Positions 4,410 through 29,119 of a DNA stretch of 64,000 bases are shown piece by piece. The stretch is from NCBI GenBank assembly GCA_963664875.1, contig OY761611.1:2688001-2752000 (forward strand), read 5' to 3'. The stretch is from Candidatus Kapaibacterium sp. GTDB lineage: Bacteria > Bacteroidota > Ignavibacteria > Kapaibacteriales > UBA2268. Every line of letters begins with the position of its first letter. Within the stretch, counting starts at the first letter, position 1. The notes beneath the pieces were generated by a model, which saw only the letters and a list, made by a program, of their open reading frames with translations, made no database searches and was not told the origin of the DNA. The translations under genes and the position numbers were made by a program.

Positions 4410-4437
4410 TGAAACATAATTCAATACTATGTGTTAT
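4410..4437 (+). promoter_or_regulatory. Putative ECF-sigma promoter, copy 1 (TGAAAC-N16-TGTTAT)
   Basis: TGAAAC ATAATTCAATACTATG TGTTAT upstream of the 1869-aa gene; same spacing as copies at 10530 and 29092. Confidence 0.6.
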
Positions 4438-4712
4438 TGTGTTATTGAATGTATAGTTCTGTATTGGCGTAAATATTATAAGTATTATATATAAAAGAAG
4501 ATATGTATTGCCAAATGGAAATATATTTACAATAAGTAGAATATATGCAAAGTATATTGTCAAAATAATACTTTAATGAAAAGCATTAAATATGACAAAT
4601 TTAATGCTATAAAAAATAGAATTTTACTATTTTGTATGTGATAAGTTGCGATTTGATACAGATAAAGAGATTGTAATATATATAGTTGTTTAATATTATT
4701 AAATGAGGTTAC

Positions 4713-7700
4713 ATGAAAAAGATCAATGTGTTTAGTGCATTGTTTGTGCTACTCGTTGTACTTTTGAGTTCACCAAAAGCAATGGCGGTGGATTTGAATG
4801 ATTTGCAGCTATCTGACTATCAAGGAGAATATACTCCTATTGCAGGTACAATTCTTGGTGACGGTGATGATTCAGAATTTGATTTTGATTTGCCATTCAC
4901 TGTGTCTCACGACGGTCAAGAATTTACCAAAGCAAGAGTTTCTACAAACGGTTGGATGGTTCTCGGTGTTTCTACATACACAGGTATTACTGCAACTCCC
5001 GGTGGGACAAATGCAAACTTTTTAGTGCCTTGTAATGAAGATTTAAGAGCCGATGCAGGTATTGGAGACATTAGATGGAACGTTGTTGGGACTGCTCCAA
5101 GCAGAACTTTAATAGTTGAGTGGAAAGACCATAAATACTATGGAAAAGATCTTTCTACACTTAATTATCAATGCCAAATTTCCGAAGGTTCTAATATCAT
5201 TAGGTTTGTTTACGGAAATATGACAGCTCTCGATGATGGCGGAACTAATCAATCTTTCAGCTATATTTCTGGTTCTGTAGGAACAAAATATATCAATATT
5301 GAACCACTTGCCACAGGATTTGTTGGACACTATGGCAATTCCACTGAAAAATATCTTACGGAAGATGACAGACCTCTTTTCCCTGCAGGCAAAACTGTTG
5401 AGTTCTCTCTAGTGAACCCTGTGCTTATATCCGAATCAACAGAAAACGATGTGCTTTGGAAAATAGGCGAAACTTATCCTGCTCCTTCAATAGAAGTTCT
5501 GCGTTTAGCAGATATGCCAAGCTTTGTAATCGAATACACTTTGAAAAATACTAAAACTGGCGAAGTGATCTATAAAGCTACTAACGAAGGTGATGCTTCT
5601 ACAAACACTTTCACTCCAAATCCACAACCGGTAGGAATGAAAGAAACTCTTACTATAACTCATGCCATTGGTAAAGCTGCTGCCTACGATAGAGAAAATC
5701 CTAACTCTGACTTAAATGACGGTAGTTTCGATTTGATTACAGATGCAGCTTCAATCGAACCGGGTAGATATGAATTAGTATGTAAATTGATAATTCCTAA
5801 TAGCGAGGTAGCTGTTCAGTCTATTACTAAAAATGTTCAAATCGCTTTGGAAAACGATCTTGCAGTTAGTGATGTAAAATATCCTAAGAAAAACGGAAGA
5901 TACCTTATCAATAATTTTGTTCCTCTTCAAGTTAGAATGAGAAACTTTGGTACTGCTCAGATTTCTAACTTCAGAGTAACTGCTAAAATATATGATGCTG
6001 ATAACAATCAGTTAGTTTACGGTCCTGAGTATTTTAACTGGCAAAACACTGCAAGACCACTAAATACAGGTGATTTTGTATCTGTAGATTTCCCTAACTT
6101 TAGAACCCAAAAACCTTTGGTTCACGTTGGTAGATATTTTGTAGAATATACTTCAGAACTTTTAAGCTCTGATGATGATATGCCTACTAACAATACTGTT
6201 GGCACATCTTCAACTAACAGACATTACTTTGATGTTGTTTATGATGTAGAACCGGGTGCAGTTTCAGTTCAGGCTCCTGCAGCAGATGTTTTTGTTGGCA
6301 GACCGCTTTTCCCAAGAGCGAAATTTATCAACAACGGTATTGTAGATTTGTCAAACGTTCCTGCAATATTTACAATTGTTGGTCCGCTTCCTTCGACAAA
6401 CGTAGTTTATCAAAACGAAATGAATGTTCAGGATTTGCAGGCTGGTAATTACAATGTTACTTCTGTTCCTTTCAATACAGAATTTATTCCTGAATTGCCA
6501 GGTACTTACAAATGTGTTGTGAGCATCAACGATCCTAACGATAAAGATAATACAAATAATACTATCGAATCTACTTTCAATGTAGTATCATTGATGTCCG
6601 GTAATTATACTATCGGCAAAACTGCTACAGGTACAAGAAACTTTACTTCTATTGAAGAAGCTTTAAATATGCTTTATCTTAAAGGTGTAGATGGTCCTGT
6701 AACATTCGAATTATTAGATCCTGAATATACAATTGGTAATGTTAATTCAGATGCTCCGGCATTGGACATGTCTTCTAAAATCATTGGTGTAAGTGAAACA
6801 AATACTATTACTTTCAAACCATCAGATGCATTGGCTACTACAAAAGCAAGTATCCAATTTAATTTAAAATCAGGTAATGGTATTGGTATTTATATCGCAC
6901 AGAACTACACTCCTGCTAATGGCAATGCTGCCGTGCATGTAGTTACAGAAAAAAATAAATACAGATTTGCAAATACAGAAGGTAACTTCATCTTTGATGG
7001 TGGTGCTCAAAAATCTTTCAAATTTAACTTAGAAACGAAAGATAATAGATTTGCAGCAGTATTTTATCTTGGTGCAGGTGCTTCTAATTGCCAAATTAAA
7101 AACTGTATAATCGAAGATGAAACTCCAAACTTCAAATCTTCTCTTCCTTTGACAGTTTATAATGCAGGTGCAGGTGCTTTCACTCAGGAAGCAGATCAAA
7201 GAAGTAATACTGCTTATTACACAGCTGGTGTCGTGCTTAGATCTGTAGCTCCACGTTATGATAAAACAAACTCTAACTACTTCAATCTTGATACGCTTAC
7301 TGCAGACAATAACGTAATTGCTAATAATGAAATCAGCGGTTATGGCTATGGTATAGCTTCTATGGGTACAGGTTTGTTATTCCAAGCAGGTGGTAGCAAC
7401 AAATTTACAAAATACTATAACTCGAATAATATTTTCGAATCTAACAAAATCCATAACGTTGGTCACGCAGGTATTTTTGTTGGTTTCGAAAATGCATCTG
7501 AAATCAGATACAACAGAATTTACGATGTAAAAGGAACTGAAGTTTTTGCTGCTTGCGGTATTGTTGCCGGTGGTGAAGCTGATAGAGATATGTTTGGTTA
7601 CAACACAGTTGATATCAAAATCCTTGGTAATGAAATTAGCCACTTGACTAATGCTAATGAAATCTATGGTATCAAAGTAGATCAGTCACCTTCTATCGTA

Positions 7701-10322
7701 ATCGAAAACAGTAAATATTCTTTATATCCTAAAGCTGATGATAACGTCTTAGTTGCTAATAACATTATCTGGCAATTAGAACCGCAACAGTCTTACACAA
7801 CTCGCGTTGGTGTTGCTGTATTTTCTCAGAGAGCTACAAAAGGTAACTTCCAAACTGCTTCTATCTTACCTTTCCAAAAAGATTATGTGGTAAGAAATAC
7901 TAAAGTAGTAAACAATACTATCTTAGTGAACGGTGACGATGGTGTTGTTAATACTGGTAGTGTTATCGGTTTGGCTTTGCAGGATAACAGAAATGCAGAA
8001 ATCAAAAACAACGCTATTGCAGCTATGGATAACGAATTTGCAGAAACTTGCTTAGCATCTACTGCAATGTTCTTACAAAATGGCGATGTTAAAAATCAGA
8101 ATATAGTTTCTGACAGAAACGTTTTCTGGACAAACAACTCTGCTTCTACTATCGCTAGAATGATCGAAACTAACGACAAAAACGAAGTAATCGAAATGGG
8201 TTACACTACTGAATATAACACTTTGAGCAACTGGATTGTTTGGTCTGCTCAGGATATGAACTCAGTAGAATCTAACTTCATGACTGATTATGAATTTACA
8301 GGAGCTGCTCCTCAGACATTAAGAGTGAAATCTAATCCGCTTCCTCTTAATTCAGTATTGAATAACAGAGGTGACAGAATTGAAAGTAACACTACTGACT
8401 TACTTGGCTACACTCGTGGTGAAGCAGGTCAGAGATACGATATCGGTGCTTTGGAATTTAACGGCAGAACTTATGTGAGCGATGTTGAAAGCACTATAAT
8501 TTTAGAACCGGCTGCTTTCAAAGCTAACGACGGTACAGAATTTGGTGATGCAGAATATATCATGACTTCTTTACCTCTTTCAGTAAAAGTTAGAGTAAGA
8601 AATAATGGTTCTTTGATGCAACAAAATACTAATGCAAAACTTTCAATCTACCGCGAATTGCCTACAGGCGAATTTGCTGCAACTCCTGAGTATATCGAAA
8701 CTGTGAAATTTGACGCAGTTGCTAATGAAAGCTCAGACGTAGTATTTGACTTGGCAGGTAAATTCGAACCAAAAACTTACAGCGATTTGAGACTTAATGC
8801 TGCATACGCTGCTTCAGTTCCGGCAAAATTTGCTCAAATGACAGCTAACGTTACTCCTCGATACAAAATTGAAATTGCAGTTGAAAATGACGAAGATAAC
8901 TACAACAACGTAATTACTAAAAATGTACGTTACTTCATCCGCAAATCTTGGTTGAGATTGCTTGTTACTTCTGAAAATGTAAATGCTGATTTGACTAACA
9001 GCCCATCTCAGGAAGTAATTGCTTCTACATTGAACCACAACAAACTTATTGATGGTCTTAGCCATGTAGGTTGGGTAGTAGAAATGGATCAAAACGCAAC
9101 TTCAATCGAAAACGATAAATTCGACTACGATGTACTTGACAGAAATTGTTGGGAACCAAGAGCAATTGACTATACAAACTACAATACTGTTATCTGGTCA
9201 GATGCTCACGATACTAAAACTGTAGCTGGCGAAGAAGTTGCTAATGCTCTTACAAGATTCCAAGAAATGGACTTGTCTGATTACACTGCTGCCGGTACTA
9301 TTAGCGTTAAGAAAAATCTTATCTTCGCTTCTCAGGAATTATTGAGAAATCAGACAACTGATTTTGCAGCTAAAGTATTTGGTGCATTCAACAGACCTGT
9401 TGCAACTCCTGACGTAATTGATTATACTAACGTAACAGGCATGAATATCGGTCGTAACTTAGTTCACTTTATTAGTGCTACTAATTTCAACGGCGATGCT
9501 GATCCTCAACCTGCGTTGATGAATATGAATCAAAACATCGATGGTATTGCAAAACTTGGATTCTACTATACAAATGTACTTGCAGGAAACCCTGCTGTTA
9601 CTGAAACAGAAAAAATCCATACAATCGGAACAGTTTCTCCGACTGCAAACAGAATACTTTTGGGTAGCGACTGGAGACATTTTGTAGATATCGAAAAAGT
9701 ACTTCGTTCATTGTTCGATTTCGCAGAAGCTAATGGTGGTACAATCATCCCTGTAGAATTGGTTAACTTTGATGCAAAAGTTGTAAATGACAGAGTTGTA
9801 TTGAACTGGGCTACTGCAAGCGAATTGAACAGCGATAGATTTGAAATCGAAAGAACAACTGCTAATAATGGCTTTGATGGCTTGTTCGAAAGAATTGAAT
9901 CAGTTGAAGCTGCAGGCAAATCAGGTAATGTTATCGACTATAATGCAATTGACGAAAATGTAACATTCGGTAATACATACGCATACAGATTGAAAATGGT
10001 TGACCGCGATGGCAAATTTGAATACAGCCAAACAGAATATGTAACTTTGGAAGGTGCAAACTCTCTTGCTATCAAAGAAGTTACTCCAAATCCTGTTGCA
10101 GTTGATGCAAACGTGGAAATCTCATTGTTCGAATCCGCAAATGTAGAAATGTATTTAGTTGATATGAGCGGAAAAGTAGTTACTAATGTATATTCAGGCA
10201 ATTTGAGTGCGGGCACTCACAGCATCAAACTTGATGTAGCAAATATTGCTTCAGGTAACTACACATTAGTGCTAAATTCTAATAGTATTGTCAGAACTAC
10301 AGTAGTAAAAGTAGTAAAATAA
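4713..10322 (+). CDS. Giant T9SS-secreted surface protein A (1869 aa)
   Basis: Signal peptide; NIDO-like N-domain (LPF..DG..F..ARVSTNGW, GTAPSRTLIVEW); CARDB/Ig-like modules ending D..N.NN; parallel beta-helix (I.NN.I repeats); PVEL..F Ig module; T9SS CTD (PNP...DMSGK...SGNYTLVL...KVVK). Confidence 0.88.
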   Translation: MKKINVFSALFVLLVVLLSSPKAMAVDLNDLQLSDYQGEYTPIAGTILGDGDDSEFDFDLPFTVSHDGQEFTKARVSTNGWMVLGVSTYTGITATPGGTNANFLVPCNEDLRADAGIGDIRWNVVGTAPSRTLIVEWKDHKYYGKDLSTLNYQCQISEGSNIIRFVYGNMTALDDGGTNQSFSYISGSVGTKYINIEPLATGFVGHYGNSTEKYLTEDDRPLFPAGKTVEFSLVNPVLISESTENDVLWKIGETYPAPSIEVLRLADMPSFVIEYTLKNTKTGEVIYKATNEGDASTNTFTPNPQPVGMKETLTITHAIGKAAAYDRENPNSDLNDGSFDLITDAASIEPGRYELVCKLIIPNSEVAVQSITKNVQIALENDLAVSDVKYPKKNGRYLINNFVPLQVRMRNFGTAQISNFRVTAKIYDADNNQLVYGPEYFNWQNTARPLNTGDFVSVDFPNFRTQKPLVHVGRYFVEYTSELLSSDDDMPTNNTVGTSSTNRHYFDVVYDVEPGAVSVQAPAADVFVGRPLFPRAKFINNGIVDLSNVPAIFTIVGPLPSTNVVYQNEMNVQDLQAGNYNVTSVPFNTEFIPELPGTYKCVVSINDPNDKDNTNNTIESTFNVVSLMSGNYTIGKTATGTRNFTSIEEALNMLYLKGVDGPVTFELLDPEYTIGNVNSDAPALDMSSKIIGVSETNTITFKPSDALATTKASIQFNLKSGNGIGIYIAQNYTPANGNAAVHVVTEKNKYRFANTEGNFIFDGGAQKSFKFNLETKDNRFAAVFYLGAGASNCQIKNCIIEDETPNFKSSLPLTVYNAGAGAFTQEADQRSNTAYYTAGVVLRSVAPRYDKTNSNYFNLDTLTADNNVIANNEISGYGYGIASMGTGLLFQAGGSNKFTKYYNSNNIFESNKIHNVGHAGIFVGFENASEIRYNRIYDVKGTEVFAACGIVAGGEADRDMFGYNTVDIKILGNEISHLTNANEIYGIKVDQSPSIVIENSKYSLYPKADDNVLVANNIIWQLEPQQSYTTRVGVAVFSQRATKGNFQTASILPFQKDYVVRNTKVVNNTILVNGDDGVVNTGSVIGLALQDNRNAEIKNNAIAAMDNEFAETCLASTAMFLQNGDVKNQNIVSDRNVFWTNNSASTIARMIETNDKNEVIEMGYTTEYNTLSNWIVWSAQDMNSVESNFMTDYEFTGAAPQTLRVKSNPLPLNSVLNNRGDRIESNTTDLLGYTRGEAGQRYDIGALEFNGRTYVSDVESTIILEPAAFKANDGTEFGDAEYIMTSLPLSVKVRVRNNGSLMQQNTNAKLSIYRELPTGEFAATPEYIETVKFDAVANESSDVVFDLAGKFEPKTYSDLRLNAAYAASVPAKFAQMTANVTPRYKIEIAVENDEDNYNNVITKNVRYFIRKSWLRLLVTSENVNADLTNSPSQEVIASTLNHNKLIDGLSHVGWVVEMDQNATSIENDKFDYDVLDRNCWEPRAIDYTNYNTVIWSDAHDTKTVAGEEVANALTRFQEMDLSDYTAAGTISVKKNLIFASQELLRNQTTDFAAKVFGAFNRPVATPDVIDYTNVTGMNIGRNLVHFISATNFNGDADPQPALMNMNQNIDGIAKLGFYYTNVLAGNPAVTETEKIHTIGTVSPTANRILLGSDWRHFVDIEKVLRSLFDFAEANGGTIIPVELVNFDAKVVNDRVVLNWATASELNSDRFEIERTTANNGFDGLFERIESVEAAGKSGNVIDYNAIDENVTFGNTYAYRLKMVDRDGKFEYSQTEYVTLEGANSLAIKEVTPNPVAVDANVEISLFESANVEMYLVDMSGKVVTNVYSGNLSAGTHSIKLDVANIASGNYTLVLNSNSIVRTTVVKVVK

Positions 10323-10341
10323 TATTACTCCATAGCAACAT

Positions 10342-10385
10342 TAAGCCCTTTTGCTTATTCATAAAGCAAAAGGGCTTATTTTTTT
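10342..10385 (+). terminator. Intrinsic terminator
   Basis: TAAGCCCTTTTGCTT / AAGCAAAAGGGCTTA followed by T-tract. Confidence 0.85.
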
Positions 10386-10529: not shown

Positions 10530-10557
10530 TGTAACATTGATAGAAAACATTTGTTAT
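10530..10557 (+). promoter_or_regulatory. Putative ECF-sigma promoter, copy 2 (TGTAAC-N16-TGTTAT)
   Basis: TGTAAC ATTGATAGAAAACATT TGTTAT upstream of the 1818-aa gene; both hexamers identical to the copy at 29092. Confidence 0.65.
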
Positions 10558-10732: not shown

Positions 10733-13700
10733 GTGAAAAAACGTTTAATGCAGTTTTTCGCTCTCGCAACGTTACTAATAGTTGCGTCCATACAAGCATG
10801 GGCTGCTCCAGTGGCCAGAACTTGTACTGCAAGTTCAAGCTCTGGTCCGGATTCCTTCCATGAGTTAACAATTAATGGATTAGAGTTGATCACTAATCAT
10901 TTTGCAGCACCTGGTGGTTATGTAGATTATACAAATCAAGCAATAACAGTTAGTGCTGGCGATGTTATGGATTTTTATGCGTACGGTCTTGAGTGGTACA
11001 GTGCAGGAAGTCCTTTGGGGCTATATTCTTGCCGTGTGTCAGTACTTGTAGATTTCAATTCAGATGGAGACTTCGAAGATGAAGGAGAACTTATTTGGAT
11101 TTCTACAGTAGGTGCTAACGAACATGAAGCACAAATTACTATTCCTGAAGAAGTAGATGGTGGCGAATATAGAATGTGTATTGTTGGAACAGAATCAACT
11201 TGGGGCGATCCAACTGTTCTTTCAAGTACAGGTTGTGGTAGTGATGCTTATGCAATGATTGTTGATGTTACCCTTATCGTTAAGCCTAAGACACCTACAC
11301 TTGTTGACATTTTCCCAACAACACCCGAAGATGGCGTAGCCGTATTTTCACGTGGCTACAAAATGGGACAACCATGGGTTGACGTAAAACGCGTAGATGG
11401 CATGCCAAACATATCTTATAAATACAAAGTAATTGGTCCTTTGCCATTAGAAACAGTAGTTTATGAAGCAAAAGTAGAAGGCAATGTAGCATCTAACTTA
11501 ATCACACCAAACCCACAGCCATTAGGCGAAGTTGCAAGAATGACAGTAACTCATGCAACAGGTTTGGCAGCAGAATATGATGCAAACAACCCTGACAACG
11601 TAGGTGGCACAGCAAATCCTGACAACACAGGTGTGTTTGATTTACAGACAAATCAGTTGCAAATCGAAGGCGGTTCATACCGTGCAATAGCTGAGCTAAG
11701 CTTCACCTTTGAAGGTCAGCCTATGACACTTACAAAATATAAAGATTTTGTAATCGCAATCGACAATGATATTGCAATTACATCAGTAAGAAAACCAATC
11801 AAAATGCCAAAAATGAAATATGGCAAAAACGTTCCTGTTCCAATCACAGCAACAGTAACAAACGTAGGTCTTTATGATGTAAGTGAATTTGAAATCACAG
11901 CAAAAGTATATCCTGAAAACGGAACAAATCCTGTATTCGAAACATCAGAACGCTGGAAAAATACATCAGCACCACTATCAACAGGCGATTTGACAGTAAT
12001 GGAATTAGATCCATACAGAGCCAAAGACGGTGTTGGTAATTTCCGCATCGAATTTGAAGTGGAATTGATAAGTGCATTTGACGAAGCACCTGCAAACAAC
12101 GTATATCCAAAAGTTGGCCAGGCTGCACACGTATTTGAAGTAGCATACCAACGCGATGCACAGCCAATAGCAGTAATCGCACCTGTAGGCTCAAATAACT
12201 ATGTAGGTCGTCCGATAATCCCAAGAATCGAATTAAAAAACAACGGTATTCTTGACTTATCTAACGTACCGACAAAATTGCAAATCAAAGCACCAAACGG
12301 CGCAGTAGTTTATGATGAAGACTTCGAAGTAGAAGTAGTACCATCAGGCTTATACAACACAATGAAAGAATACTTGCCTGTAGAATTTATCCCTGCAATG
12401 GCAGGCACATATACAGCCAAAGTATATACATCACTAACAACAGATGACAATAAAGCTAATGACATGTATGAAACAACATTCACAGTTATTAACTCCTTGT
12501 CAGGTACATACACAATCGGTACAACAAACTCATCAAGCACACGTAACTTTGCTACAATCCAAGATGCATTGGATATGATATATGAATCAGGTGTTTACGG
12601 TCCTGTAACATTTGAATTGACAGATGCATCATACACAGTAGGTAGCAAAATTGGCCAAAATCCTGCAATGGACTTGTCATCACACATCATCGGCGGCGGC
12701 GAAGATCACCCAATCGTGTTCAAACCATCACAAAGCCGTGCAGTGAGCAAAGGCTCAATTACAATTAACATGAAAAGCGGTAACGGTATTGGTGTGTTCA
12801 TTGCCCAGGCAGCAGAGCACAGCAATGCAGCAGCAGCAATTAATGTAGTAAGAGCAACATTGAAACGTGACTATGCAAATTCACCGGGTTACATCACATT
12901 TGATGGTGGCAGCCAGAAATCAATCAAATTCACGTTAGACACAGACGAACCATTCAAAGCAGTGTTCTATTTGGGTAACGGTGCATCAAACAATACAATC
13001 AAAAATTGTATAATCGAAGGTACAGATGCAGGCAGCTTTAAATGCTCATTGCCATTGACAGTATATTCAGCAGCACAGGGCGGCTTCAAATACGAAGCAG
13101 ACAAACGCTCAAATACATTGGCTTACACAGCCGGTATCGTGATGCGCAGTAAAGCACCGATTAACGAAAAATTCAATGCAAACACAGACGGTCTTGATAC
13201 CCTTGTAAATGCAAACAACGTAATCATGAACAACGAAATCAGCGGATTCGCTTATGGTGTTGCTTCTATGGGTATCGGTCAGTTGCTCGTACAAGGTTTA
13301 GGCCATAACGTAGAGCATTTCAACGAAAACAACGTAATCAGCAACAACGTAATTCATAATGTAGGCCGCGCAGGCGTTTTTGTAGGTCATGAAAAACACA
13401 CAGAAATCAGCGGTAACAGAATATATGACATCGAAGGCGGTTGCACAGGTCTTGACGCAGCAGGTATCATGGCAGGCGGTCAGTCAGCACGTGGCTATTT
13501 CGGCTACAACAACCGTATGGTAAACATATTGAACAACGAAATCAGCAGCATCAGCGGTACAGGCATGGTAAGTGGTATTCGCGTAGAGCAATCACCACAA
13601 CAGCTAATCGAAGGTAGCTTGCTTACAACATTCCCGGTAAATCCTGAATCAATGGTAATCGCAGGTAACATCGTATGGGAATTGTTGCCAAACGACGCAA

Positions 13701-16189
13701 ATACAGCAAGAGCAGGTATTTACGTATTCACACAACGCAACAGTTTTGACTCACCATTGCAGTCAGATTACTTCTCAAGAAATGACGCAATCGTAAATAA
13801 TACAATCATAGTAAACGGCGATGACGGCGTAATGAACACACGTGCAGTAATGGGCGTAGGTCTTCAAAACGTAATGGGTACAGTACTCAAAAACAACGCA
13901 ATCGCAACAATGGATAACGACTATGCAGCAACTTGCCCTGTATCAGCATGCGTGTTCTACCAAGGACCTTCAATGGAAGAGGCAGGCGTAATTTCTGACC
14001 GCAACGTATATTGGACAGAAAACTCAGCATCATCAGTTTACCGTTGGATCGAAACAGATGCAGCCGGCAACAAATTGTCAGATGCAGCAATCAATGAATA
14101 CAAAACATTGGCACAATGGCAAGCATGGGCAGGAGCAGACAAATACTCAGTATATTCAAAATTCATGACAGATTACGCATTTGTAGGAACAAATCCACAG
14201 AACTTACGCGTTAAATCAAACCCAATGCCATTGAACTCAGTACTAAATAACCGTGGCGATATCCTAGATGTAACAACAAGCGACATCACAGGCAAAGTAC
14301 GCGGCGAAGCAGGTCAGAGATACGACATCGGTGCGTTAGAATTTAACGGACGCGTATATGTAAGCGATATGGAATCAACTACAATCACAGCACCTGCATC
14401 ATACCGTGCAACAGAAGGTATCTTTGCAGATGCAGAACACATCATGACAGAAGCCCCTGTAGAAGTAAGTGCACGTTTGAGAAACAACGGTAGCTTATTC
14501 CAAACAGGCGCAGAAGTAACAGTAAAAATCTATCGTGAATTGCCAAACGGTACATTCGGTGCAGCACCTGACTACGAACAAACAGTAAAAGTAGATGCAA
14601 CAACCTACGAATACGTTGATGTAAACTTCAACCTTGCCGATGGCAAAGGCTTAGAATTTGTACCAGAAACGTATGCAGACTTGCGTTTGAACCCAAGCTA
14701 TGCAGCATCAGTACCTGAAGTATATTCAGAAATGACAGCAAACGTAACACCACGCTACAAAATAATGATAGTAACAGAAAGCGATGAAGACAACACAAAC
14801 AACGAAGCATCAAAAATCGTAAGATTCTTCATTCGCCGCTCATGGATGAACATGTTGGTAAGCAGCCAGTATGTAAATGCAGACTTGAGCAACACACCAA
14901 GCCTAACAGAAATCGCAGGTAAATTGAACCACGACCGCGTAGTAAACGGTTTGAGCTTTGTAGGCTGGAAAGTAGCAATCAATCCGACAGCAACAACAAT
15001 CGCCAACGACACAATCGACTATGACGTATTAGACAGAAACAACTGGGAAGCAAGAGCCATAGATTATGGTCACTACCGCACAGTAGTATGGTCAGACGCA
15101 CACGATGTGATGGGCGATGCAGATGTAAAATTATCACGTTACGAACAATTAGACATAGAAAACTACTTTGCAAACGGAACTTCAATCGATAAGAAAAACT
15201 TGATTTTAGCATCACAGGAAATGATCAGAAACAACGGCGTAGTAGCACGCGATTTATTCAGAGCTACAGACCGCGTAAAAGCAAATCCTGAAGTAATCGA
15301 CTACACAGAAGTAACCGGCAGCAGCGTAGGCAGAAACCTAACAAACATAATAGCACCAACAAACTTCGTAGGCGACGCAGCACCAAACCCAGCATTAGTT
15401 GACATGTGGGACGGCGGCGAAGGTAGAGTTAAGTTGGCATACTACTACACAAATGAACTAAACGGCACAAGCACATTGTTACCGGAAGAAAAAATCATGG
15501 GTGTAGCCACAACAACAATCGGAACAAATATATGCTACTTAGGAGCAGACTGGCGCCACATAGCAGACATCGAAAAAATGCTAAGAAGCGTATTTGACTT
15601 CGCAGAAGCAAACGGCGGCATCATAATTCCAATCGAATTGGCAACATTTGATGCAAAAGCAGTAGGCAACCGAGTAGATTTGAACTGGTCAACTTTATCA
15701 GAAATCGAAAGTGACCGCTTCGAAGTAGAAAGAACAGAAATTACAGACGGCTATGCAGACCTATTCAGCAAAGTATCAGAAGTAAGCGCAAGCGGCACAA
15801 GCCACTCAGTACGCAACTACAACACAGCAGATTACGGCGTAGAATTAGGCAAAAAATATGCATACAGACTAAAAATGATAGAACGCAGCGGAAAATTCGA
15901 ATACAGCGAAATCGAAGAAGTGGAACTAAGCGCACCAAACAACTTGATGGTAGGCGAAGTAACACCAAATCCTGTAAGTGCACAGTCTAAAGTAAAAGTA
16001 AGCGGCGCAAGCACAGCAAACATTTACTTAAGCGACATGAGCGGACGCAAAGTAGTAGAATACGCAAAGGGCAACTTTGACGGCAGCGAAGTAACAATCG
16101 ACGCATCAAACTTGACAAGCGGCAGCTACACATTAGTAATCGAATTAGACGGCTACGTAATCACACGTAAAGTAAATGTAGTGAAATAA
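10733..16189 (+). CDS. Giant T9SS-secreted surface protein B (1818 aa), paralog of protein A with a GEVED-like N-terminal domain
   Basis: GTG start with AAGGTG SD; signal peptide; GEVED-like VDFNSDGDFEDEGE...ITIP...GEYRM; collinear similarity to protein A from ~aa 185 (TPNPQP, RGEAGQRYDIGALEFNGR, NVTPRYKI, FDFAEANGG); T9SS CTD. Confidence 0.88.
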   Translation: MKKRLMQFFALATLLIVASIQAWAAPVARTCTASSSSGPDSFHELTINGLELITNHFAAPGGYVDYTNQAITVSAGDVMDFYAYGLEWYSAGSPLGLYSCRVSVLVDFNSDGDFEDEGELIWISTVGANEHEAQITIPEEVDGGEYRMCIVGTESTWGDPTVLSSTGCGSDAYAMIVDVTLIVKPKTPTLVDIFPTTPEDGVAVFSRGYKMGQPWVDVKRVDGMPNISYKYKVIGPLPLETVVYEAKVEGNVASNLITPNPQPLGEVARMTVTHATGLAAEYDANNPDNVGGTANPDNTGVFDLQTNQLQIEGGSYRAIAELSFTFEGQPMTLTKYKDFVIAIDNDIAITSVRKPIKMPKMKYGKNVPVPITATVTNVGLYDVSEFEITAKVYPENGTNPVFETSERWKNTSAPLSTGDLTVMELDPYRAKDGVGNFRIEFEVELISAFDEAPANNVYPKVGQAAHVFEVAYQRDAQPIAVIAPVGSNNYVGRPIIPRIELKNNGILDLSNVPTKLQIKAPNGAVVYDEDFEVEVVPSGLYNTMKEYLPVEFIPAMAGTYTAKVYTSLTTDDNKANDMYETTFTVINSLSGTYTIGTTNSSSTRNFATIQDALDMIYESGVYGPVTFELTDASYTVGSKIGQNPAMDLSSHIIGGGEDHPIVFKPSQSRAVSKGSITINMKSGNGIGVFIAQAAEHSNAAAAINVVRATLKRDYANSPGYITFDGGSQKSIKFTLDTDEPFKAVFYLGNGASNNTIKNCIIEGTDAGSFKCSLPLTVYSAAQGGFKYEADKRSNTLAYTAGIVMRSKAPINEKFNANTDGLDTLVNANNVIMNNEISGFAYGVASMGIGQLLVQGLGHNVEHFNENNVISNNVIHNVGRAGVFVGHEKHTEISGNRIYDIEGGCTGLDAAGIMAGGQSARGYFGYNNRMVNILNNEISSISGTGMVSGIRVEQSPQQLIEGSLLTTFPVNPESMVIAGNIVWELLPNDANTARAGIYVFTQRNSFDSPLQSDYFSRNDAIVNNTIIVNGDDGVMNTRAVMGVGLQNVMGTVLKNNAIATMDNDYAATCPVSACVFYQGPSMEEAGVISDRNVYWTENSASSVYRWIETDAAGNKLSDAAINEYKTLAQWQAWAGADKYSVYSKFMTDYAFVGTNPQNLRVKSNPMPLNSVLNNRGDILDVTTSDITGKVRGEAGQRYDIGALEFNGRVYVSDMESTTITAPASYRATEGIFADAEHIMTEAPVEVSARLRNNGSLFQTGAEVTVKIYRELPNGTFGAAPDYEQTVKVDATTYEYVDVNFNLADGKGLEFVPETYADLRLNPSYAASVPEVYSEMTANVTPRYKIMIVTESDEDNTNNEASKIVRFFIRRSWMNMLVSSQYVNADLSNTPSLTEIAGKLNHDRVVNGLSFVGWKVAINPTATTIANDTIDYDVLDRNNWEARAIDYGHYRTVVWSDAHDVMGDADVKLSRYEQLDIENYFANGTSIDKKNLILASQEMIRNNGVVARDLFRATDRVKANPEVIDYTEVTGSSVGRNLTNIIAPTNFVGDAAPNPALVDMWDGGEGRVKLAYYYTNELNGTSTLLPEEKIMGVATTTIGTNICYLGADWRHIADIEKMLRSVFDFAEANGGIIIPIELATFDAKAVGNRVDLNWSTLSEIESDRFEVERTEITDGYADLFSKVSEVSASGTSHSVRNYNTADYGVELGKKYAYRLKMIERSGKFEYSEIEEVELSAPNNLMVGEVTPNPVSAQSKVKVSGASTANIYLSDMSGRKVVEYAKGNFDGSEVTIDASNLTSGSYTLVIELDGYVITRKVNVVK

Positions 16190-20463: not shown

Positions 20464-21528
20464 ATGGATAGCTTAGAAGCAAAATTGAATTTTGATTTTG
20501 AAACCAATCACAAGATTTTGAACAGAATTGCATATATAGATGCTTTCAAAAGCTCTTCTTCTAATTCGGAAAAACTCGGTTCTGCGTTCTACAAATCCAG
20601 AAAAAGGCTAATCGTACCTGATAAAGTATATGCTCTAATAAAAATGGATGTAGGCAATATTGGAGAAGATAAAGTCATTGCTATCCTCACCAAAAAAGAA
20701 GTAGCTGTTTCTGATAAAGAAAATATGGTAATTGCTTTTAGGCAAGCTCTTAGTATTATTGAAAAAAATTATTCGCAAATCAAAATTGCTCCAAATTATC
20801 TCAAAGGTTTACATCAAAGAATACTCAGAGACAGGCAGTCTGAGCTTAACACAAGAGGTAAATACAAATCATCTGCCAATATGTTTATTTCCTTAGACGA
20901 TGCCGGCAATAAAACTATCCTTGCTGATACTGCCGCTCCTGAATTAGTTGAATCCAGAATTGCAGAGCTAATCGAGATGATTAATCTGCATTGTTTAACT
21001 AAAAAGTACCATCCACTCATTTTGACAGCACTTTTTTATTATGAGATTATTTCTATTCATCCATTCCAATCTGCAAACAGCGTGTTTGCTAAACTTATGT
21101 TGAATTTGTTGTTGCTGCAAAATGGATATAACTTTGTTATGTTTACCGCGTTTGAGGCCAGCTTTTTAAGTAAAAAAGAGGACTACTATTCAGCCTTGCT
21201 CTCAGGGTTGAAGATGCGGGGAGAGAGAAGTGAAAATATTGGTCAGTGGCTTCTTTTTATGCTTGATTGTATTATTGCTGAAATCGATATGCTTGCTGCT
21301 GCCAAAAAAGAGTATGATAAAAAAGGAGTTTATCTCAATAAAAGACAAAAAAGAGTAATTGATTTTATCCAAAGCAATCAGCCTATAAAACTTGCCGACT
21401 TATCGGATAAGTTCAAAAAAATATCTATCAATACTCTCAAAAAGGATTTGGCGTACCTCAAAAACGAAAATGTGGTTGCCTCACAAGGTAAAAACAAAGG
21501 CACTGTTTACTACATCAGCAAAGATTAG
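20464..21528 (+). CDS. Fic family protein with C-terminal winged HTH, non-canonical Fic motif
   Basis: LHQ.IL...G.YK, HPL..TA.F.YE..SIHPFQSANS; C-terminal NTLKKDLAYL...G.NKGT.Y HTH. Confidence 0.85.
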   Translation: MDSLEAKLNFDFETNHKILNRIAYIDAFKSSSSNSEKLGSAFYKSRKRLIVPDKVYALIKMDVGNIGEDKVIAILTKKEVAVSDKENMVIAFRQALSIIEKNYSQIKIAPNYLKGLHQRILRDRQSELNTRGKYKSSANMFISLDDAGNKTILADTAAPELVESRIAELIEMINLHCLTKKYHPLILTALFYYEIISIHPFQSANSVFAKLMLNLLLLQNGYNFVMFTAFEASFLSKKEDYYSALLSGLKMRGERSENIGQWLLFMLDCIIAEIDMLAAAKKEYDKKGVYLNKRQKRVIDFIQSNQPIKLADLSDKFKKISINTLKKDLAYLKNENVVASQGKNKGTVYYISKD

Positions 21529-21560
21529 TAGAGTTCAAAAGAAACTATCTATAGATTATA

Positions 21561-22832: not shown

Positions 22833-22947
22833 CAGTTCACTCTCTCTTATTGGCATATAATGTAATGACGCTTTATGTTGGATATATTGAACACAGAAAA
22901 AGTTGGACTTGGCATAATTTTTATACAGTAGAAAGTGGAGGAATAAA

Positions 22948-24036
22948 ATGGCTGAGAATAAGGACGGTCAAGAGAAGACGGAACAGGCGACGGCCAAGCG
23001 TCTAACGGACGCTCGCGAAAAAGGCCAGGTCGCCAAAAGTCAAGACGTAACAACCGCCGGCGTGCTGCTGGTGGGCACTCTTGTTGTATTCCTTTTTGGC
23101 CCTTCGATAGCTCAATCAATTCGTGGTTTTATGACAACTGTACTCCATAACTCCGCCTATTATGAAATAAGCGACAGCAATGTAGTCTTTTATTTTAATG
23201 CTTTGATGGGCTTTTTTGTCAAGATATTGCTTCCATTGTTATTGGTGGTTTTCGCAATCACTTTTGTGGGTGAAGTCAGCCAGATAGGTATAAAAATAGC
23301 CACCAAAAAATTTACAGAAGGCTTGCAGTTCAAACAAATATTCAATCCGTTTTCCGGAATAAAAAAAATATTCTTTTCTTCACGCTCTCTATTCGAACTC
23401 GGTAAAAGTTTAGCCAAAATCTTTATTCTTGGTTTGGTAGTGTATTCAGTTCTTAATGGAAAAGATGAGGACATTGTTGCTTTGCTTGAAAAGCCATTTA
23501 CAGAAATGTCAAATTTTATGTTTTCTCTTAGTTTCGAGCTTGCAATCAAAGTTGGTGTAGTTTATATCATAATAGCTGTTTCTGATTTTTACTATCAGAA
23601 ATGGCGATTTGCAGAAGATATGAAAATGACTAAAAAGGAAGTTAAAGAAGAGTCAAAACAAACAGAAGGTGATCCTCAGATTAAAGCTCGCTTGCGTGGA
23701 CTGATGCGTCAAAGGATGAGAAAAATGATGCTAAGAAAAGTGCAGGATGCTGACGTAGTTATCACCAACCCAACTCACTTCGCAGTGGCACTTCAATATA
23801 AACAGGGACAAATTGGGGCTCCTGTGCTTATAGCAAAAGGAGCTGATTTTCTTGCAAAACAAATCAGAGAGATAGCCGAAAAGGCAGATGTAGTCATAGT
23901 TGAAGATCCGCCTTTATGTCGTATGATTTACCACAATGTCGAACTGGATGCAGAAATACCAGAGGAGCTATTCAAAGCGGTGGCACAGGTGCTTGCTTAC
24001 GTCTATCATTTCAAAGAGCAGAGAAAGAAAAATTAG
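22948..24036 (+). CDS. flhB: Flagellar export switch protein FlhB
   Basis: EKTEQAT.KRL.DAREKGQV.KS, TM region, MKMTK.EVKEE.KQ.EGDPQIK, autocleavage NPTH, AVAQVLAYVY; GGAGG SD. Confidence 0.95.
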   Translation: MAENKDGQEKTEQATAKRLTDAREKGQVAKSQDVTTAGVLLVGTLVVFLFGPSIAQSIRGFMTTVLHNSAYYEISDSNVVFYFNALMGFFVKILLPLLLVVFAITFVGEVSQIGIKIATKKFTEGLQFKQIFNPFSGIKKIFFSSRSLFELGKSLAKIFILGLVVYSVLNGKDEDIVALLEKPFTEMSNFMFSLSFELAIKVGVVYIIIAVSDFYYQKWRFAEDMKMTKKEVKEESKQTEGDPQIKARLRGLMRQRMRKMMLRKVQDADVVITNPTHFAVALQYKQGQIGAPVLIAKGADFLAKQIREIAEKADVVIVEDPPLCRMIYHNVELDAEIPEELFKAVAQVLAYVYHFKEQRKKN

Positions 24037-24079
24037 ACTTTATTATGCTCAGTGATTAGAAACACTCTCTCAAAGATTC

Positions 24080-24490
24080 CTATACCTCTGAAAGGATACT
24101 TTCATTACGAATATAATCCAATTCTCGGAGAATCTTTTTCTCAGTCTCGTTCAAGATGTTTTCTCTGATAGTCGCTGTATTATAGTTTGAAATTATATGA
24201 TAATATGGCGAACCCAAATCGGAGTTTAGGCTAATAACCGTACTTTCCAAATCGAACTTCTTAGGAATCAAACTACCGTTGTATATCAATTTGTTGTTTT
24301 CGATAGTCAACTTCGGAATTTTTAAAAGATTTTTGAGAATGCAAGCTAAAACAAAAGCTGTATTGATTAGGACTCCAAGAAGAATTATACCAAGCAGGAA
24401 ACCAAAATCGCTTGAAACTAATAATGCGATTGCAAGTATTAGTATCAAATTTGTCAGAATATTTATCTTGGAGCAGTTCTTCATTTTCAT
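24080..24490 (-). CDS. Hypothetical membrane protein (2 TM)
   Basis: Two hydrophobic helices then a small soluble domain; start uncertain. Confidence 0.55.
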   Translation of the reverse strand: MKMKNCSKINILTNLILILAIALLVSSDFGFLLGIILLGVLINTAFVLACILKNLLKIPKLTIENNKLIYNGSLIPKKFDLESTVISLNSDLGSPYYHIISNYNTATIRENILNETEKKILRELDYIRNESILSEV

Positions 24491-24564
24491 GGAGTGGTGA
24501 TTTATTACAGTATTGTATTTGTAAAATAAGAAAAATAAATCACAGAGAAAAATATTATTAGGAA

Positions 24565-25185
24565 TTAAGGGCAAAACTTTTCCACAGTTTTTCTTATCAA
24601 TTCTGTGGAAAATCCTTTAGAATTCAAGTAGTTATAAAGTGAAGCTTTTTGTTTGTCTCGGGGTTTGTTGCTGATTAAGTTCATTTTTTTGGTTGCTGCT
24701 TTCTCAGCGAACTCTTCTTCGTATTCATAAGGATAAGCTGCTTTGAGAGCTTCGTCGCAAACATAAGAAGAGACTCCGAAACTTTTAAGCATAGCACGTA
24801 TTTTTAGAGGGCCGTTCTCCTTTTTTAAAAGTGAATCTTTGATATAGGCGATTGCAAATTTGTTATCGTCAATTAGCGAAAACTCAAACAGGAAATCTAA
24901 ACAGGAGGTAACAAGTTCAGGAGGATAATTTTCTTCTAATTTACGACGGATTTGCCATTCAGACCTCAATCGGTAGCTTGAATAGTTGTATGCGTCTTGT
25001 TTTGCAGCTATGAACAAATGTTTTGCTCTCAAGTCATCTAACTCGGGTATCGAAATATCCATCCCTTTTTTCAAATTTGCCGCTGTAACAATATCCATAT
25101 CTAATTCTATGTAGTCGGAGGTGTCAAAAGTTACGACACAAACTCTTTTAGTTTTTTTATATTTTATAGATTCAATTATTGGCAT
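24565..25185 (-). CDS. recX: Regulatory protein RecX
   Basis: YRLRSEWQIRRKL, LIDD.KFA..Y, GPLKIR..L...GV, YL.SKGFS; ATG at 25185. Confidence 0.85.
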   Translation of the reverse strand: MPIIESIKYKKTKRVCVVTFDTSDYIELDMDIVTAANLKKGMDISIPELDDLRAKHLFIAAKQDAYNYSSYRLRSEWQIRRKLEENYPPELVTSCLDFLFEFSLIDDNKFAIAYIKDSLLKKENGPLKIRAMLKSFGVSSYVCDEALKAAYPYEYEEEFAEKAATKKMNLISNKPRDKQKASLYNYLNSKGFSTELIRKTVEKFCP

Positions 25186-25381
25186 GTAACAGGTGTCTTG
25201 TTTAAATGAAAAATAAAAATGATTTGTAAAACTGCAAATCGGATAAATGCAAATATAAGAAATATCGGACTTTCTATATAGTTCGTCCAGCATTAGTCCC
25301 AAGCTATCTGAATAGCTCAACTCAAATTAGTATGATGAGGAATAATTTTATATATTGTAGTGAAAATATGGGAGAACATAG

Positions 25382-25669
25382 ATGAAGAAAATACTTTTTG
25401 CCTTAGTGCTTTGTTTGACTTTGTATTCATGCGACGAAACACCGGATATAGATAAAGAGCATTTTATTAACGCTTACCGTGAAATATTGCTTGCTCGCGA
25501 ATCAATTGCTGATTCTGTAGCTGCCAATAAAGAAGTGCAAATGATCCTTACCAAATATGATTATACTATGGAGACATTTGCTAAAGAGTATCAGGATTTA
25601 ATGTCAGGAGATAGCCAGATTTATGGGATTATTGATTCTTTAAGAAAAGAATTTAGAGCAAAATATTGA
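25382..25669 (+). CDS. Small lipoprotein (DUF4296-like)
   Basis: Lipobox LYSC after hydrophobic stretch; short helical body. Confidence 0.7.
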   Translation: MKKILFALVLCLTLYSCDETPDIDKEHFINAYREILLARESIADSVAANKEVQMILTKYDYTMETFAKEYQDLMSGDSQIYGIIDSLRKEFRAKY

Positions 25670-25864
25670 TGGTTTCTGCTGCTCAATGAATGAGATATAA
25701 AAATCAGATAAAACAATGAAAGTCTATGTTTTTTAAATCTTAGATTTTAACATAAAATATATCTCTTACTATCGAGTTATATATTAGATATAATCAATTC
25801 TTTTTTTTAGCTTGTAAAGCATTGAGCATCTTTTATGACTAACCTGATATGGAGGGCTTCGCAA

Positions 25865-26998
25865 ATGGATAAGTCAAACTTTTCAGCGCTTGTAGGAAGG
25901 TCTGCACCTGAGGAACTTCAAAAACACATAGGATATTTTAACTCCGGCTCAGTTTATCAAGAGCTTTTTGACAGGATTCCCGAACTGATTCTGATATTAA
26001 ATAAATACAGAGAATCAGTATTTATAAATAAAAAAACAAAAGAGCTACTTCAGGTAGATAATCCTCTTGATATTTATGGTAAGAGGCCCGGAGAGATATT
26101 CGGATGCTTGCATGCAGAGGATGTTGACAGTGGTTGCGGAGATGCACTTGCCTGCAAATACTGCGGAGCAGTAATCTCAATAAAAGCTGCACAGGGTGGA
26201 GATAATAATGAAAACGAATGCCTGATACTTACAAAAAATAATCTGGATGCTTATGAGATGCGAGTGTCTTCTTCTGCTTTAGAGCTAAATGATGAATCAT
26301 TTGTGGTATTTACACTTGCTGATATAAGTGATACAAAAAGAAAACAGCTACTTGAAAGAATATTTTTCCACGATTTGATGAATACAGCCACCGGAATCTC
26401 TACACTTTCTCATCTGCTTAATATAAAGTTGCCTGATGAATACTCCAAATATAAACAGCTCGCAGGCGATTACTCTAATAAACTGATAGATGAAATCAAA
26501 TCACAAAGACAGATAATCGCTGCAGAAAACGGGAATTTGTCTCTAGAAATTGGCGATACCGTGTCTTGTGAAATAATCAGCAATACTGCAAATATGGCTA
26601 TGTTATATAATTTGCAGGACGAACAATTGGAAATTGACAGGGAAATGGAGAAGATTAGCTTCAAAACAGATAGGGCAATACTTGCAAGGGTTCTTACTAA
26701 TCTGATAAAAAATGCATACGAAGCTGAGTACAAAGGTGGCAAAATTACTGTTTCATGTTCCAAAAAAGATGAGAATACAATTTGTTTTAGTGTAAACAAC
26801 CCAAGTGTAATGCCGGAAAGTATTCGTGAGCAAGTCTTCAAACGTTCTTTTTCAACAAAAGGAGCAGGACGAGGACTCGGCACTTACAGCATAAAGCTAC
26901 TTACTGAGAAATATCTAAAAGGCAAAGTCTATTTTGAGAGCAAAGAACCAATAGGAACAACCTTTTATGTCGAATTGCCGGTTGATTTAGGTAGTTGA
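25865..26998 (+). CDS. Cytoplasmic PAS-domain histidine kinase with Cys-rich insert
   Basis: PAS-like N-half with CLHAEDVDSGCGDALACKYC; H-box FFHDLMN; NLIKNAYEA; FSTKGAGRGLGTY. Confidence 0.88.
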   Translation: MDKSNFSALVGRSAPEELQKHIGYFNSGSVYQELFDRIPELILILNKYRESVFINKKTKELLQVDNPLDIYGKRPGEIFGCLHAEDVDSGCGDALACKYCGAVISIKAAQGGDNNENECLILTKNNLDAYEMRVSSSALELNDESFVVFTLADISDTKRKQLLERIFFHDLMNTATGISTLSHLLNIKLPDEYSKYKQLAGDYSNKLIDEIKSQRQIIAAENGNLSLEIGDTVSCEIISNTANMAMLYNLQDEQLEIDREMEKISFKTDRAILARVLTNLIKNAYEAEYKGGKITVSCSKKDENTICFSVNNPSVMPESIREQVFKRSFSTKGAGRGLGTYSIKLLTEKYLKGKVYFESKEPIGTTFYVELPVDLGS

Positions 26999-27222
26999 GT
27001 AGGAAGGAATTATTCCTAGGCTAAATTTGCTCTATATTAGAGCGGATATATAAAAGAAGGATTTCTTGGGAGCAAGTATTTTGGATTGTTCGATAAAATG
27101 TGTGAATAATATTTTTAGAAATAAATATATTTGTTGATAACTAAATTGGGTGTTTCAATTCAAAGAAAAAATACCCAATCATTTTGAAGCAGAAGATTTA
27201 TTTATATTCGATCTTAAATACA

Positions 27223-27903
27223 ATGATTATACAGGCTACTGACTTAAAAAAATCTTACTACAACGGCAAAAATGCTACTGAAGTGATCAAGGGAATAAAC
27301 CTTAATGTGCATCATGGAGAATATCTTGCTTTAGTTGGTCCATCCGGTGCCGGGAAAAGCACTTTGCTTTATTTGATAAGCTCACTCGAAAAAACTGATT
27401 CAGGTAAAATTCTTTTTAATCTTGACTCGTCTTCATTTAATATTATTGATTTGAACAAAGAAAAGATAGCTGAGATTAGAAACAAGTACATCGGGTTTAT
27501 TTTTCAGTTCCATCATCTTATGCCGGAATTTAATGCACTTGAAAATGTTATGATTCCAGGAATGATTGCCGGCACAGCTAAAGCTAAACTTAAAGAAAAA
27601 GCCCTTTATCTGCTGGATAAAGTCGGAGTATCACATAGGCTCGACCATAAGCCCAGCGAGCTTTCGGGAGGCGAACAGCAGCGTGTAGCTATTGCACGCT
27701 CTCTGATTAACAATCCCAAAATCCTATTTGCGGACGAACCGACGGGCAATCTTGATACAAAAAATTCTGAATCTTTTCTCGAACTAATCAGTACTATTAA
27801 AAAAGAATATAATCTGACTGTTGTTACAGCTACTCACTCAAAAGAAATAGCTGCAGCTGCAGACAGAATTGTTACAATTGAAGATGGATACATTAAGGAA
27901 TAA
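27223..27903 (+). CDS. lolD: ABC ATP-binding protein, LolD-like
   Basis: [26 protein letters not shown] LolD motif, [19 protein letters not shown]. Confidence 0.8.
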
Positions 27904-27909
27904 AAAATT

Positions 27910-28641: not shown

Positions 28642-28646
28642 TCACC

Positions 28647-29069
28647 ATGAAGTTGCTTGGTATATTATTACTTGCTCTTTTTGCTGTTTCAATATTTGCA
28701 GAAGAAACCCAAGACTCTAACAATGGGCAAATGAGTAAAAAAGACAGTGTAGCAATAATAGATTTTTCTCCCCAAAAGTTAGAGCTTTTTGGGCATGAAG
28801 GACAGTTTTTTGATACAATGATTGTTGTGCATAACTACGGCAACATACCTTTGAAATTGAAAAAAGTGCAGGCGAGTTGCTCATGCTCCTCCGGTACTTT
28901 ACAGCAAGGAACGGTGATGCCCGATAAAACTGGAAAAATATATATATCTATCAACAAACATGGCTTGCACGGTGATGCTCGGCGAGTGGAGTTTGATGTT
29001 TATTCTAATGCGGAAGATCCTATCAGCAGTTTTGAAATAATCTTTTACGATAAAAAAAGCGGCGAATAA
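28647..29069 (+). CDS. DUF1573 Ig-like exported protein
   Basis: Signal peptide; N.GN.PL.L..V.ASC.C motif; YSNA.DP. Confidence 0.75.
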   Translation: MKLLGILLLALFAVSIFAEETQDSNNGQMSKKDSVAIIDFSPQKLELFGHEGQFFDTMIVVHNYGNIPLKLKKVQASCSCSSGTLQQGTVMPDKTGKIYISINKHGLHGDARRVEFDVYSNAEDPISSFEIIFYDKKSGE

Positions 29070-29083
29070 GTCGCTTTTTTTTA
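29051..29083 (+). terminator. Intrinsic terminator insulating the ECF sigma gene from the upstream operon
   Basis: TAAAAAAAGCGGC GAATAA GTCGCTTTTTTTTA. Confidence 0.75.
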
Positions 29084-29091
29084 TACACTTG

Positions 29092-29119
29092 TGTAACATT
29101 TATCTCCAATTATTGTTAT
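29092..29119 (+). promoter_or_regulatory. Putative autoregulated ECF promoter, copy 3 (TGTAAC-N16-TGTTAT), likely leaderless mRNA
   Basis: TGTAAC ATTTATCTCCAATTAT TGTTAT ends 9 nt before the sigma ATG; no SD; AAC (-35) and GTT (-10) are typical ECF cores. Confidence 0.7.

Follow-up and report, generated by a model that had tools for sequence, protein, structure and literature searches.

A candidate ECF sigma factor promoter motif shared by a sigma/anti-sigma operon and type IX secretion cargo genes in Candidatus Kapaibacterium sp.

Anti-sigma factors that reach across both membranes are known from Bacteroides thetaiotaomicron, where the dual-membrane anti-sigmas Dma1-3 have extracytoplasmic function (ECF) sigma factors of group ECF21 as partners. 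In the main text of the Dma1 paper the Dma1 regulon is given as BT_1287, NigD1 and NigD2, and the phenotype as vesiculation (PMC10927553). Here we describe a comparable locus in a 64-kb stretch of the genome of Candidatus Kapaibacterium sp. (contig OY761611.1), called the window below. It contains an ECF sigma gene followed by the gene of a predicted dual-membrane anti-sigma, and two giant genes, A and B, which encode type IX secretion system (T9SS) cargo. An earlier note on this DNA had proposed that one promoter motif connects the sigma gene with both giants. Our analysis points to the motif TGTAAC-N16-TGTTAT as the likely -35/-10 promoter of the window sigma, driving its own operon and a set of T9SS cargo genes. 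Judged from the DNA alone, the motif appears to behave like an ECF promoter, conserved and specific in its spacer, and it marks T9SS cargo genes, including both giants of the window.

The likeness to the Dma/Das systems of Bacteroides is one of predicted architecture only. As in those systems, the ECF sigma gene comes first and the anti-sigma gene second, the latter being predicted here to encode an N-terminal region, an inner-membrane helix, a tether and a barrel. Several paralogous pairs occur per genome, and the host belongs to the Bacteroidota/Chlorobiota group. Unlike the three-gene regulon given for Dma1 in the main text of that paper, the regulon predicted here consists of T9SS cargo genes with a defined promoter code.

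Two other systems invite comparison. The available text on Porphyromonas gingivalis describes a PorXY-SigP cascade in which SigP acts on T9SS component genes (porT, porV, porP and others), PorX stabilises SigP, and the proposed SigP motif is an A-rich decamer (PMC4800418); SigP is placed in ECF228, among the ECF groups without a canonical anti-sigma (PMC7826278). Our locus likewise ties an ECF sigma to type IX secretion. However, an anti-sigma is present and the targets of the exact motif are cargo and not T9SS components, so that the locus does not qualify as a PorXY-SigP system. The A-rich decamer is also unlike TGTAAC-N16-TGTTAT. In Clostridium thermocellum the paralogous sigma/anti-sigma pairs SigI/RsgI are described as regulating cellulosome components (PMC4711584, PMC6582324). 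By analogy with that account, the paralogous pairs described below, each with its own promoter variant, may divide up secreted surface proteins that form a large family. The differences are that SigI/RsgI, as described there, involve the sigma-I class, a Gram-positive envelope and sensing via extracellular carbohydrate-binding modules, not via an outer-membrane barrel.

As far as our literature searches show, neither the promoter code nor the cargo regulon is in print: no published description was found of this motif or of a T9SS-cargo regulon for the Dma/Das family, and supplements may contain motifs for ECF groups or tables of the Das1 regulon. The main text of the Dma1 paper (PMC10927553) uses the word 'promoter' and T9SS terms 0 times, its three uses of 'motif' that were shown concern lipoprotein export (LES), and no ECF21 motif is given in the passages available. 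'Promoter', 'motif' and 'T9SS' occur 0 times in the accessible text of the Dma2 paper. Terms for ECF21, ECF03 and Bacteroides are all absent from the main text of Rhodius 2013 (PMC3817407), and the BtModulome paper names Das1/Dma1 in its introduction only. The regulation of T9SS cargo genes is little known, the PorXY-SigP cascade acting, in the text available, on machinery genes. The present locus supplies a precise conserved promoter code and distinguishable codes for paralogous sigmas, and the motif can be used for predicting co-regulated cargo sets in related genomes.

Within the window the pattern TG[TA]AAC-N16-TGTTAT has exactly three matches, each of them on the + strand (sites 1-3 in Table 1). 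They are the copies reported in the earlier note, at 4410, 10530 and 29092. Dinucleotide shuffles gave an expected count of 0.03, and three or more copies were present in 0 of 100 shuffles. The terminators that the same note had placed after gene A and before the sigma promoter are also there (10342-10378; 29061-29075), as is the distance of 9 nt between the 29092 copy and the sigma ATG. The stem and T-run at 29061-29075 are likewise present in same-genus orthologs. The note had further described the spacer as starting with AT, and it does so in all three window copies; these two bases are not kept in the other genomic copies or in orthologs, and they were rejected as a part of the motif. A housekeeping promoter was also considered, and a scan with the sigma-70 consensus gave none at the sigma site and only matches at chance level near gene B. 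Promoters of ECF sigmas usually have an AAC -35, a GT-containing -10 and a fixed spacer of 16-17 nt. TGTAAC-N16-TGTTAT has this autoregulatory layout and is kept upstream of orthologs, which is consistent with an ECF promoter.

Since the pattern was defined post hoc from the three window copies, copies outside the window are the independent test. The genome is a single contig of 3.83 Mb with 36% GC, falling to 31% in intergenic DNA. It has ten matches to the pattern, six with TGTAAC and four with TGAAAC (site 1 and three intragenic copies). The six exact copies, four of them outside the window, compare with about 0.25 expected: four order-3 Markov simulations of the whole genome contained 0, 1, 0 and 0 copies, and 20 such simulations of the intergenic DNA gave a mean of 0.2 and a maximum of 1. 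All six lie in promoter position, 9-234 nt upstream of a gene on the same strand, and the one at genome 739712 overlaps a crude divergent open reading frame (ORF) call. The spacer is specific, too. With spacers of 13 to 20 nt the exact hexamers have 0, 0, 1, 6, 3, 0, 0 and 2 matches in the genome, and TGTAAC-Nx-TGT[CT][ACT] has 2, 0, 2, 19, 12, 1, 0, 2 and 0 promoter-position matches with spacers of 13 to 21 nt. The genome scan proposed in the earlier note thus gave the enrichment it had predicted, six exact copies against about 0.25, with N16 favoured.

The targets of the exact motif are the ECF sigma gene and five cargo genes with a T9SS C-terminal domain (CTD), among them three of the four giant paralogs. 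Genes with a CTD were called with a custom hidden Markov model (HMM) built from the CTDs of this genome, and they make up 190 of 2877 genes (6.6%) against 5/5 non-sigma targets (hypergeometric p 1.2e-6). Two of the four sites outside the window precede genes for giants, of 1818 and 1853 aa, and the other two precede those for a VWA-CTD protein (1137 aa) and an Omp28-CTD protein (773 aa). Por_Secre_tail was found in all five non-sigma targets. Three of them exceed Pfam's 27-bit cut-off, whereas the VWA and Omp28 proteins scored 20.4 and 25.4 bits and both reached at least 27.0 in a six-frame search. The genome-wide search with this profile gave 150 scored matches among 207 candidates. When the -10 was relaxed to TGT[TC][AT][AT], the genome had 26 matches, 19 of them in promoter position and 15 of these before CTD genes, while TGTAAC alone in promoter position had a CTD gene downstream in 37 of 123 cases. 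The predicted regulon would therefore comprise five cargo genes by the exact motif and about 15-16 by the relaxed -10. The proposal of an ECF promoter common to the sigma gene and both giants stood as far as enrichment, spacer specificity and conservation in orthologs are concerned, but its regulon of two giants was too small. Tandem arrays of CTD genes of ~455-478 aa (genome 2530610-2535172 and 3299102-3302194) carry an identical TGTAAC-N16-TGTCAA before every gene.

Both giants have the features of T9SS type A cargo, namely a CTD above the cut-off and a signal-peptide-like N-terminus, in a genome with a T9SS. In gene A, Por_Secre_tail (PF18962) matches residues 1792-1859 with 30.6 bits (cut-off 27) and TIGR04183 scores 27.6 bits (cut-off 23); for gene B the scores are 31.9 and 32.5 bits, both above cut-off. 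Hydrophobic N-termini were read from the sequences of both proteins, and the T9SS translocon SprA is encoded by a 2324-aa ORF (SprA_N 154.5 bits). Together with the 1818-aa and 1853-aa proteins the two giants make up a single family of paralogs. Gene B is 94% identical to the paralog at genome 798028-803484 and 80% identical to that at 3275827-3281388, each with the exact motif upstream, and gene A is 48-49% identical to its three genomic paralogs. The regions upstream of the four giants are unlike beyond the two hexamers, even in the 94%-identical pair, and the spacers differ as well; the motif is therefore not a remnant of duplication.

The motif is also conserved in relatives. Sigma homologs were taken from the loci of 29 relatives, and the motif was counted in the genomes of 20 relatives. 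The exact motif is found at 13 of the 29 loci, 9-13 nt upstream of the sigma ATG and with diverged spacer sequences, and at two more it is one base off, with TGTTAC (L017) or TGAAAC (L021, genome G011) as the -35. These 13 and 2 loci all belong to the same family, with 50-87% protein identity. Before more distant sigma homologs, related pairs such as TGTAAC-N16-TGTTAG could be read by eye. In 4/4 same-genus genomes the gene A ortholog retains site 1, at -303 to -306 and in surrounding DNA that has diverged, as TGTAAC/TGAAAC/TGATAC-N16-TGTT(AT/TC/TA), with TGTAAC in two of the four. A gene B ortholog (G001, L086) has the exact motif with a different spacer, likewise 175 nt before an 1815-aa CTD gene. 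The second check suggested in the earlier note, conservation upstream of orthologs, therefore came out in its favour at the sigma gene (13/29 and 2 near matches) and at gene A.

In several of the 20 relatives, counts of the exact motif also exceed those of a reversed-pattern control, with 15 vs 1 in G011, 9 vs 1 in G010, 6 vs 0 in G023 and 13 vs 0 in G012, and the genomes G005 and G006, which have no sigma ortholog (E<=1e-40), contain 0 copies. We examined 56 of the 59 non-sigma matches in relatives, and 54 are followed by an ORF of 80 aa or more. The first such ORF encodes a CTD in 20 of the 54 cases (G011 9/15, G004 3/5, G001 2/2, G010 2/8, G012 2/9, G024 1/3, G019 1/1, G023 0/6), a share for which the background is rough, consisting of 200-321 unscored first-look candidates per genome. 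Four further ORFs, truncated by contig ends, are N-terminal pieces with homology to the giants, and many of those without CTD encode small lipoprotein-like proteins. In G023, which represents a different family, the exact motif stands before small lipoprotein-like or barrel-like proteins (L064-L068), and its lipoprotein-like targets resemble the lipoprotein regulon reported for Dma1 of B. thetaiotaomicron.

The sigma factor itself has the ECF (group IV) layout, with sigma-2 and sigma-4 domains only and a length within 170-220 aa. Its scores are 55.5 bits for Sigma70_r2, 58.1 bits for Sigma70_r4_2 and 87.7 bits for TIGR02937 (cut-off 42.9). It stays below the curated cut-offs of NF058625, the GFO_1088/PG0214 family (108.3 vs 130), and of TIGR02985, Sig70_bacteroi1 (106.8 vs 126.4). 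The anti-sigma ORF begins 6 nt past the sigma stop; cognate pairing was read from this gene order, which is the same in 28 of 29 loci of relatives. Profile matches of the anti-sigma are weak (RseA_N 23.3 bits, cut-off 24; NF052375 20.2 bits, cut-off 100). An AlphaFold2 model built from a 28-sequence alignment (mean predicted local distance difference test score, pLDDT, 69) has helices at residues 11-75 (pLDDT about 80), a hydrophobic transmembrane helix at 91-119, a disordered low-complexity linker rich in S/T/N/D/E at 120-244 (pLDDT <50) and eight strands at 249-397, mostly with pLDDT >90. The best PDB matches found with Foldseek are the eight-stranded barrels OmpA-TM, NspA, OmpW, OprF-N, Ail and OmpX (E 9e-6 to 1e-3), and most orthologs end in Phe. 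The protein is accordingly predicted to have a cytoplasmic helical domain and one transmembrane helix, which a disordered linker joins to a barrel of outer-membrane type, an architecture that fits the trans-envelope anti-sigma postulated in the earlier note. In one relative (L043, G010:C54:59506-59533) the anti-sigma is itself among the downstream ORFs counted above, a second exact motif being present after the sigma stop, 11 nt ahead of the anti-sigma start.

Table 1. Coordinates of the features discussed (window positions unless marked as genome positions)
Feature	Position	Strand	Evidence or remark
Site 1, TGAAAC-N16-TGTTAT, candidate distal ECF-type promoter of giant gene A	4410..4437	+	weaker -35 variant; 275 nt to ATG 4713
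Giant gene A, 1869 aa, T9SS type A cargo	4713..10322	+	Por_Secre_tail, TIGR04183, signal-peptide-like N-terminus
Intrinsic terminator 3' of gene A	10342..10378	+	15-bp stem, T-run
Site 2, exact TGTAAC-N16-TGTTAT, candidate ECF-type promoter of giant gene B	10530..10557	+	175 nt to GTG 10733
Giant gene B, 1818 aa, GEVED domain and T9SS type A CTD	10733..16189	+	profile matches
Weak intrinsic terminator between the upstream DUF1573 gene and the sigma promoter	29061..29075	+	5-bp stem and T-run
Site 3, exact TGTAAC-N16-TGTTAT, candidate autoregulatory promoter of the ECF sigma operon	29092..29119	+	9 nt to ATG 29129
ECF sigma factor, 189 aa	29129..29698	+	Sigma70_r2, Sigma70_r4_2, TIGR02937
Anti-sigma factor, 398 aa, predicted dual-membrane (Dma-like)	29704..30900	+	weak profile matches, AlphaFold2 model
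Three paralogous sigma/anti-sigma pairs	genome 806953-808807, 1756721-1758595, 3138446-3140345		homologous over full anti-sigma length

These parts suggest the following mechanism. The co-transcribed anti-sigma would hold the sigma inactive through its N-terminal helical domain in the cytoplasm, and would span the envelope with its inner-membrane helix, a disordered periplasmic linker of ~125 residues and an eight-stranded barrel in the outer membrane. A signal at the outer membrane would free the sigma, possibly by regulated proteolysis as in other ECF systems. RNA polymerase holoenzyme with this sigma would then transcribe the sigma operon, giving positive feedback. The constant short distance between motif and ATG suggests that this transcription begins a few bases before the ATG, on a leaderless or near-leaderless mRNA. 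The further targets would be giant genes A and B, the two more giant paralogs, the VWA-CTD protein and the Omp28-CTD protein, and about ten more cargo genes with a -10 of TGTC/TGTT are probably also driven by this sigma. The predicted regulon consists mostly of secreted surface proteins, including the four paralogs of ~1800 aa, so that one envelope-spanning sensor probably switches large surface proteins on together. That an outer-membrane-anchored anti-sigma couples the state of the surface to cargo transcription is a hypothesis that can be tested with reporters, although the bacterium is uncultured.

If the promoter is real, then we can ask: Which sigma reads it? Besides the window sigma the genome encodes the three paralogous sigma/anti-sigma pairs, with 40-47% sigma identity, and a sigma at 1495169-1495732 with 36% identity. 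We regard it as unlikely, but worth weighing, that the cargo promoters are read mainly by one of these four relatives, and that the window sigma controls little besides its own operon. Orthologs of sigma 1495169 keep TGTAAC-N17-TGT(C/T)T upstream in at least eight genera (L151-L164; genome 1495766), and the N17 class has 12 promoter-position matches, five of them before CTD genes. This sigma looks like the head of a second, overlapping cargo regulon. ECF sigmas with the same -35 often tolerate a spacer change of one nucleotide in either direction. However, the cargo promoters have the hexamers and the N16 spacer of the conserved promoter of the window sigma, and of no paralog, and the spacer distribution separates into N16 and N17 classes. 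The other paralogs keep different signatures. Orthologs of sigma 807004 have TGTGAC-N16-TGTT(T/A)(A/T), and those of sigma 1756780 have TGCAAC-N16-TGTATC (also written TGTA[AT]C), and in this genome each signature occurs solely at its own gene. The third pair is operonic, without a promoter of its own. It follows that the cargo N16-TGTTAT promoters match the window sigma's own promoter best. The paralog that is 94% identical to gene B has the sigma/anti-sigma pair at 807 kb as a neighbour, at a distance of 3.5 kb.

A second alternative is that the hexamers are a direct repeat bound by a transcription-factor dimer, for example of a response regulator, and not a -35/-10 pair. TGTAAC and TGTTAT are indeed alike (TGTNAY) and lie 22 bp apart from centre to centre, or two helical turns, and the window has a histidine kinase gene at 25835-26998. 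We find this very improbable, because in many genera the motif precedes the sigma ATG by 9-13 nt, which leaves room for a transcription start, but none for a separate downstream promoter. Every sigma paralog also has its own variant of the bipartite design, as expected for sigma autoregulation, and the layout of the motif is the usual one for ECF promoters. Chance resemblance within AT-rich intergenic DNA can hardly account for the three copies: the GC content is low, the pattern was chosen post hoc and its TGAAAC variant occurs three times inside genes, but against the three and six copies observed in window and genome the expected numbers are 0.03 and about 0.25, the four copies outside the window all precede CTD genes and orthologs keep the motif despite diverged spacers. 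A chance origin was rejected on the shuffles, Markov simulations and spacer counts.

Several observations nevertheless weigh against control of the cargo genes by the window sigma through this motif, or limit how the numbers should be read. Sigma 1495169 has the TGTAAC -35 in common with the window sigma, which makes cross-talk with the N16 promoters possible. The leaders of the giant genes would be 175-275 nt long, and the second of two conserved blocks upstream of gene A, 10-35 nt before its ATG, means that another promoter may also serve this gene. Site 1 has the -35 variant TGAAAC, whose other three genomic copies are all intragenic, and its support consists therefore only of conservation in orthologs. 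The gene set of 2877 is one of crude longest-ORF calls. In relatives, 30 of the 54 downstream ORFs are without a CTD, including 6/6 in G023, and CTDs there were scored with the HMM from this genome's own CTDs. In G012, nine of the 13 exact matches, on nine contigs (e.g. L088, L089, L091, L092), have one spacer, GATACACAAAAAAGCA, some with 1-2 changes. Most copies in G012 belong to one repeated element before unrelated genes, and we took them as such and not as a regulon; the motif count of this genome is inflated. Finally, one contig from an RNA library begins at 29099, ~27 nt upstream of the predicted start. If it represents RNA, some transcription comes from upstream, but contigs cannot show starts and the library may contain DNA.

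The RNA data are assembled contigs of two metatranscriptome runs from one wastewater study, which do not allow transcript starts, strands or levels to be read. Contigs with 95-99% likeness match gene B over 11312-16134 and the sigma/anti-sigma genes over 29099-29541 and 29576-30152. Among the contigs of the two runs there was none over 17737-27741, which is not evidence of silence.

A wider idea can be put forward tentatively, as possible but doubtful. In this lineage, Dma-type anti-sigma/ECF pairs may form a promoter 'address code', consisting of a -35 base and a spacer of 16 or 17 nt, that splits the T9SS cargo of ~190 genes into separately inducible sets, with the barrels reporting surface state or cargo traffic to transcription. 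If true, transcriptional feedback onto T9SS cargo from the outer membrane would have been described for the first time, and Dma-type systems would gain their first physiological output besides vesiculation.

Some further details of the window may be added. The -10 of site 1 lies within a tandem duplication, TGTGTTAT TGTGTTAT (window 4429-4446), so that TGTTAT occurs a second time, 8 nt downstream, and this copy has no -35 to match it at 16 nt. The two conserved blocks 5' of gene A (window 4590-4712) are kept in four same-genus orthologs. One, at about -110, reads attaaatatg..aaatttaatgctataaa, and the other, at -35..-10, reads gtaatatatatagttgtttaatatt. They may represent a proximal promoter or an element of the 5' untranslated region in the 275-nt leader. 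Downstream of the operon, a 1259-aa ORF (33904-37683) follows pheT (31088-33556) and has weak coiled-coil-type Pfam matches to ATG16 and GAS, both below cut-off.

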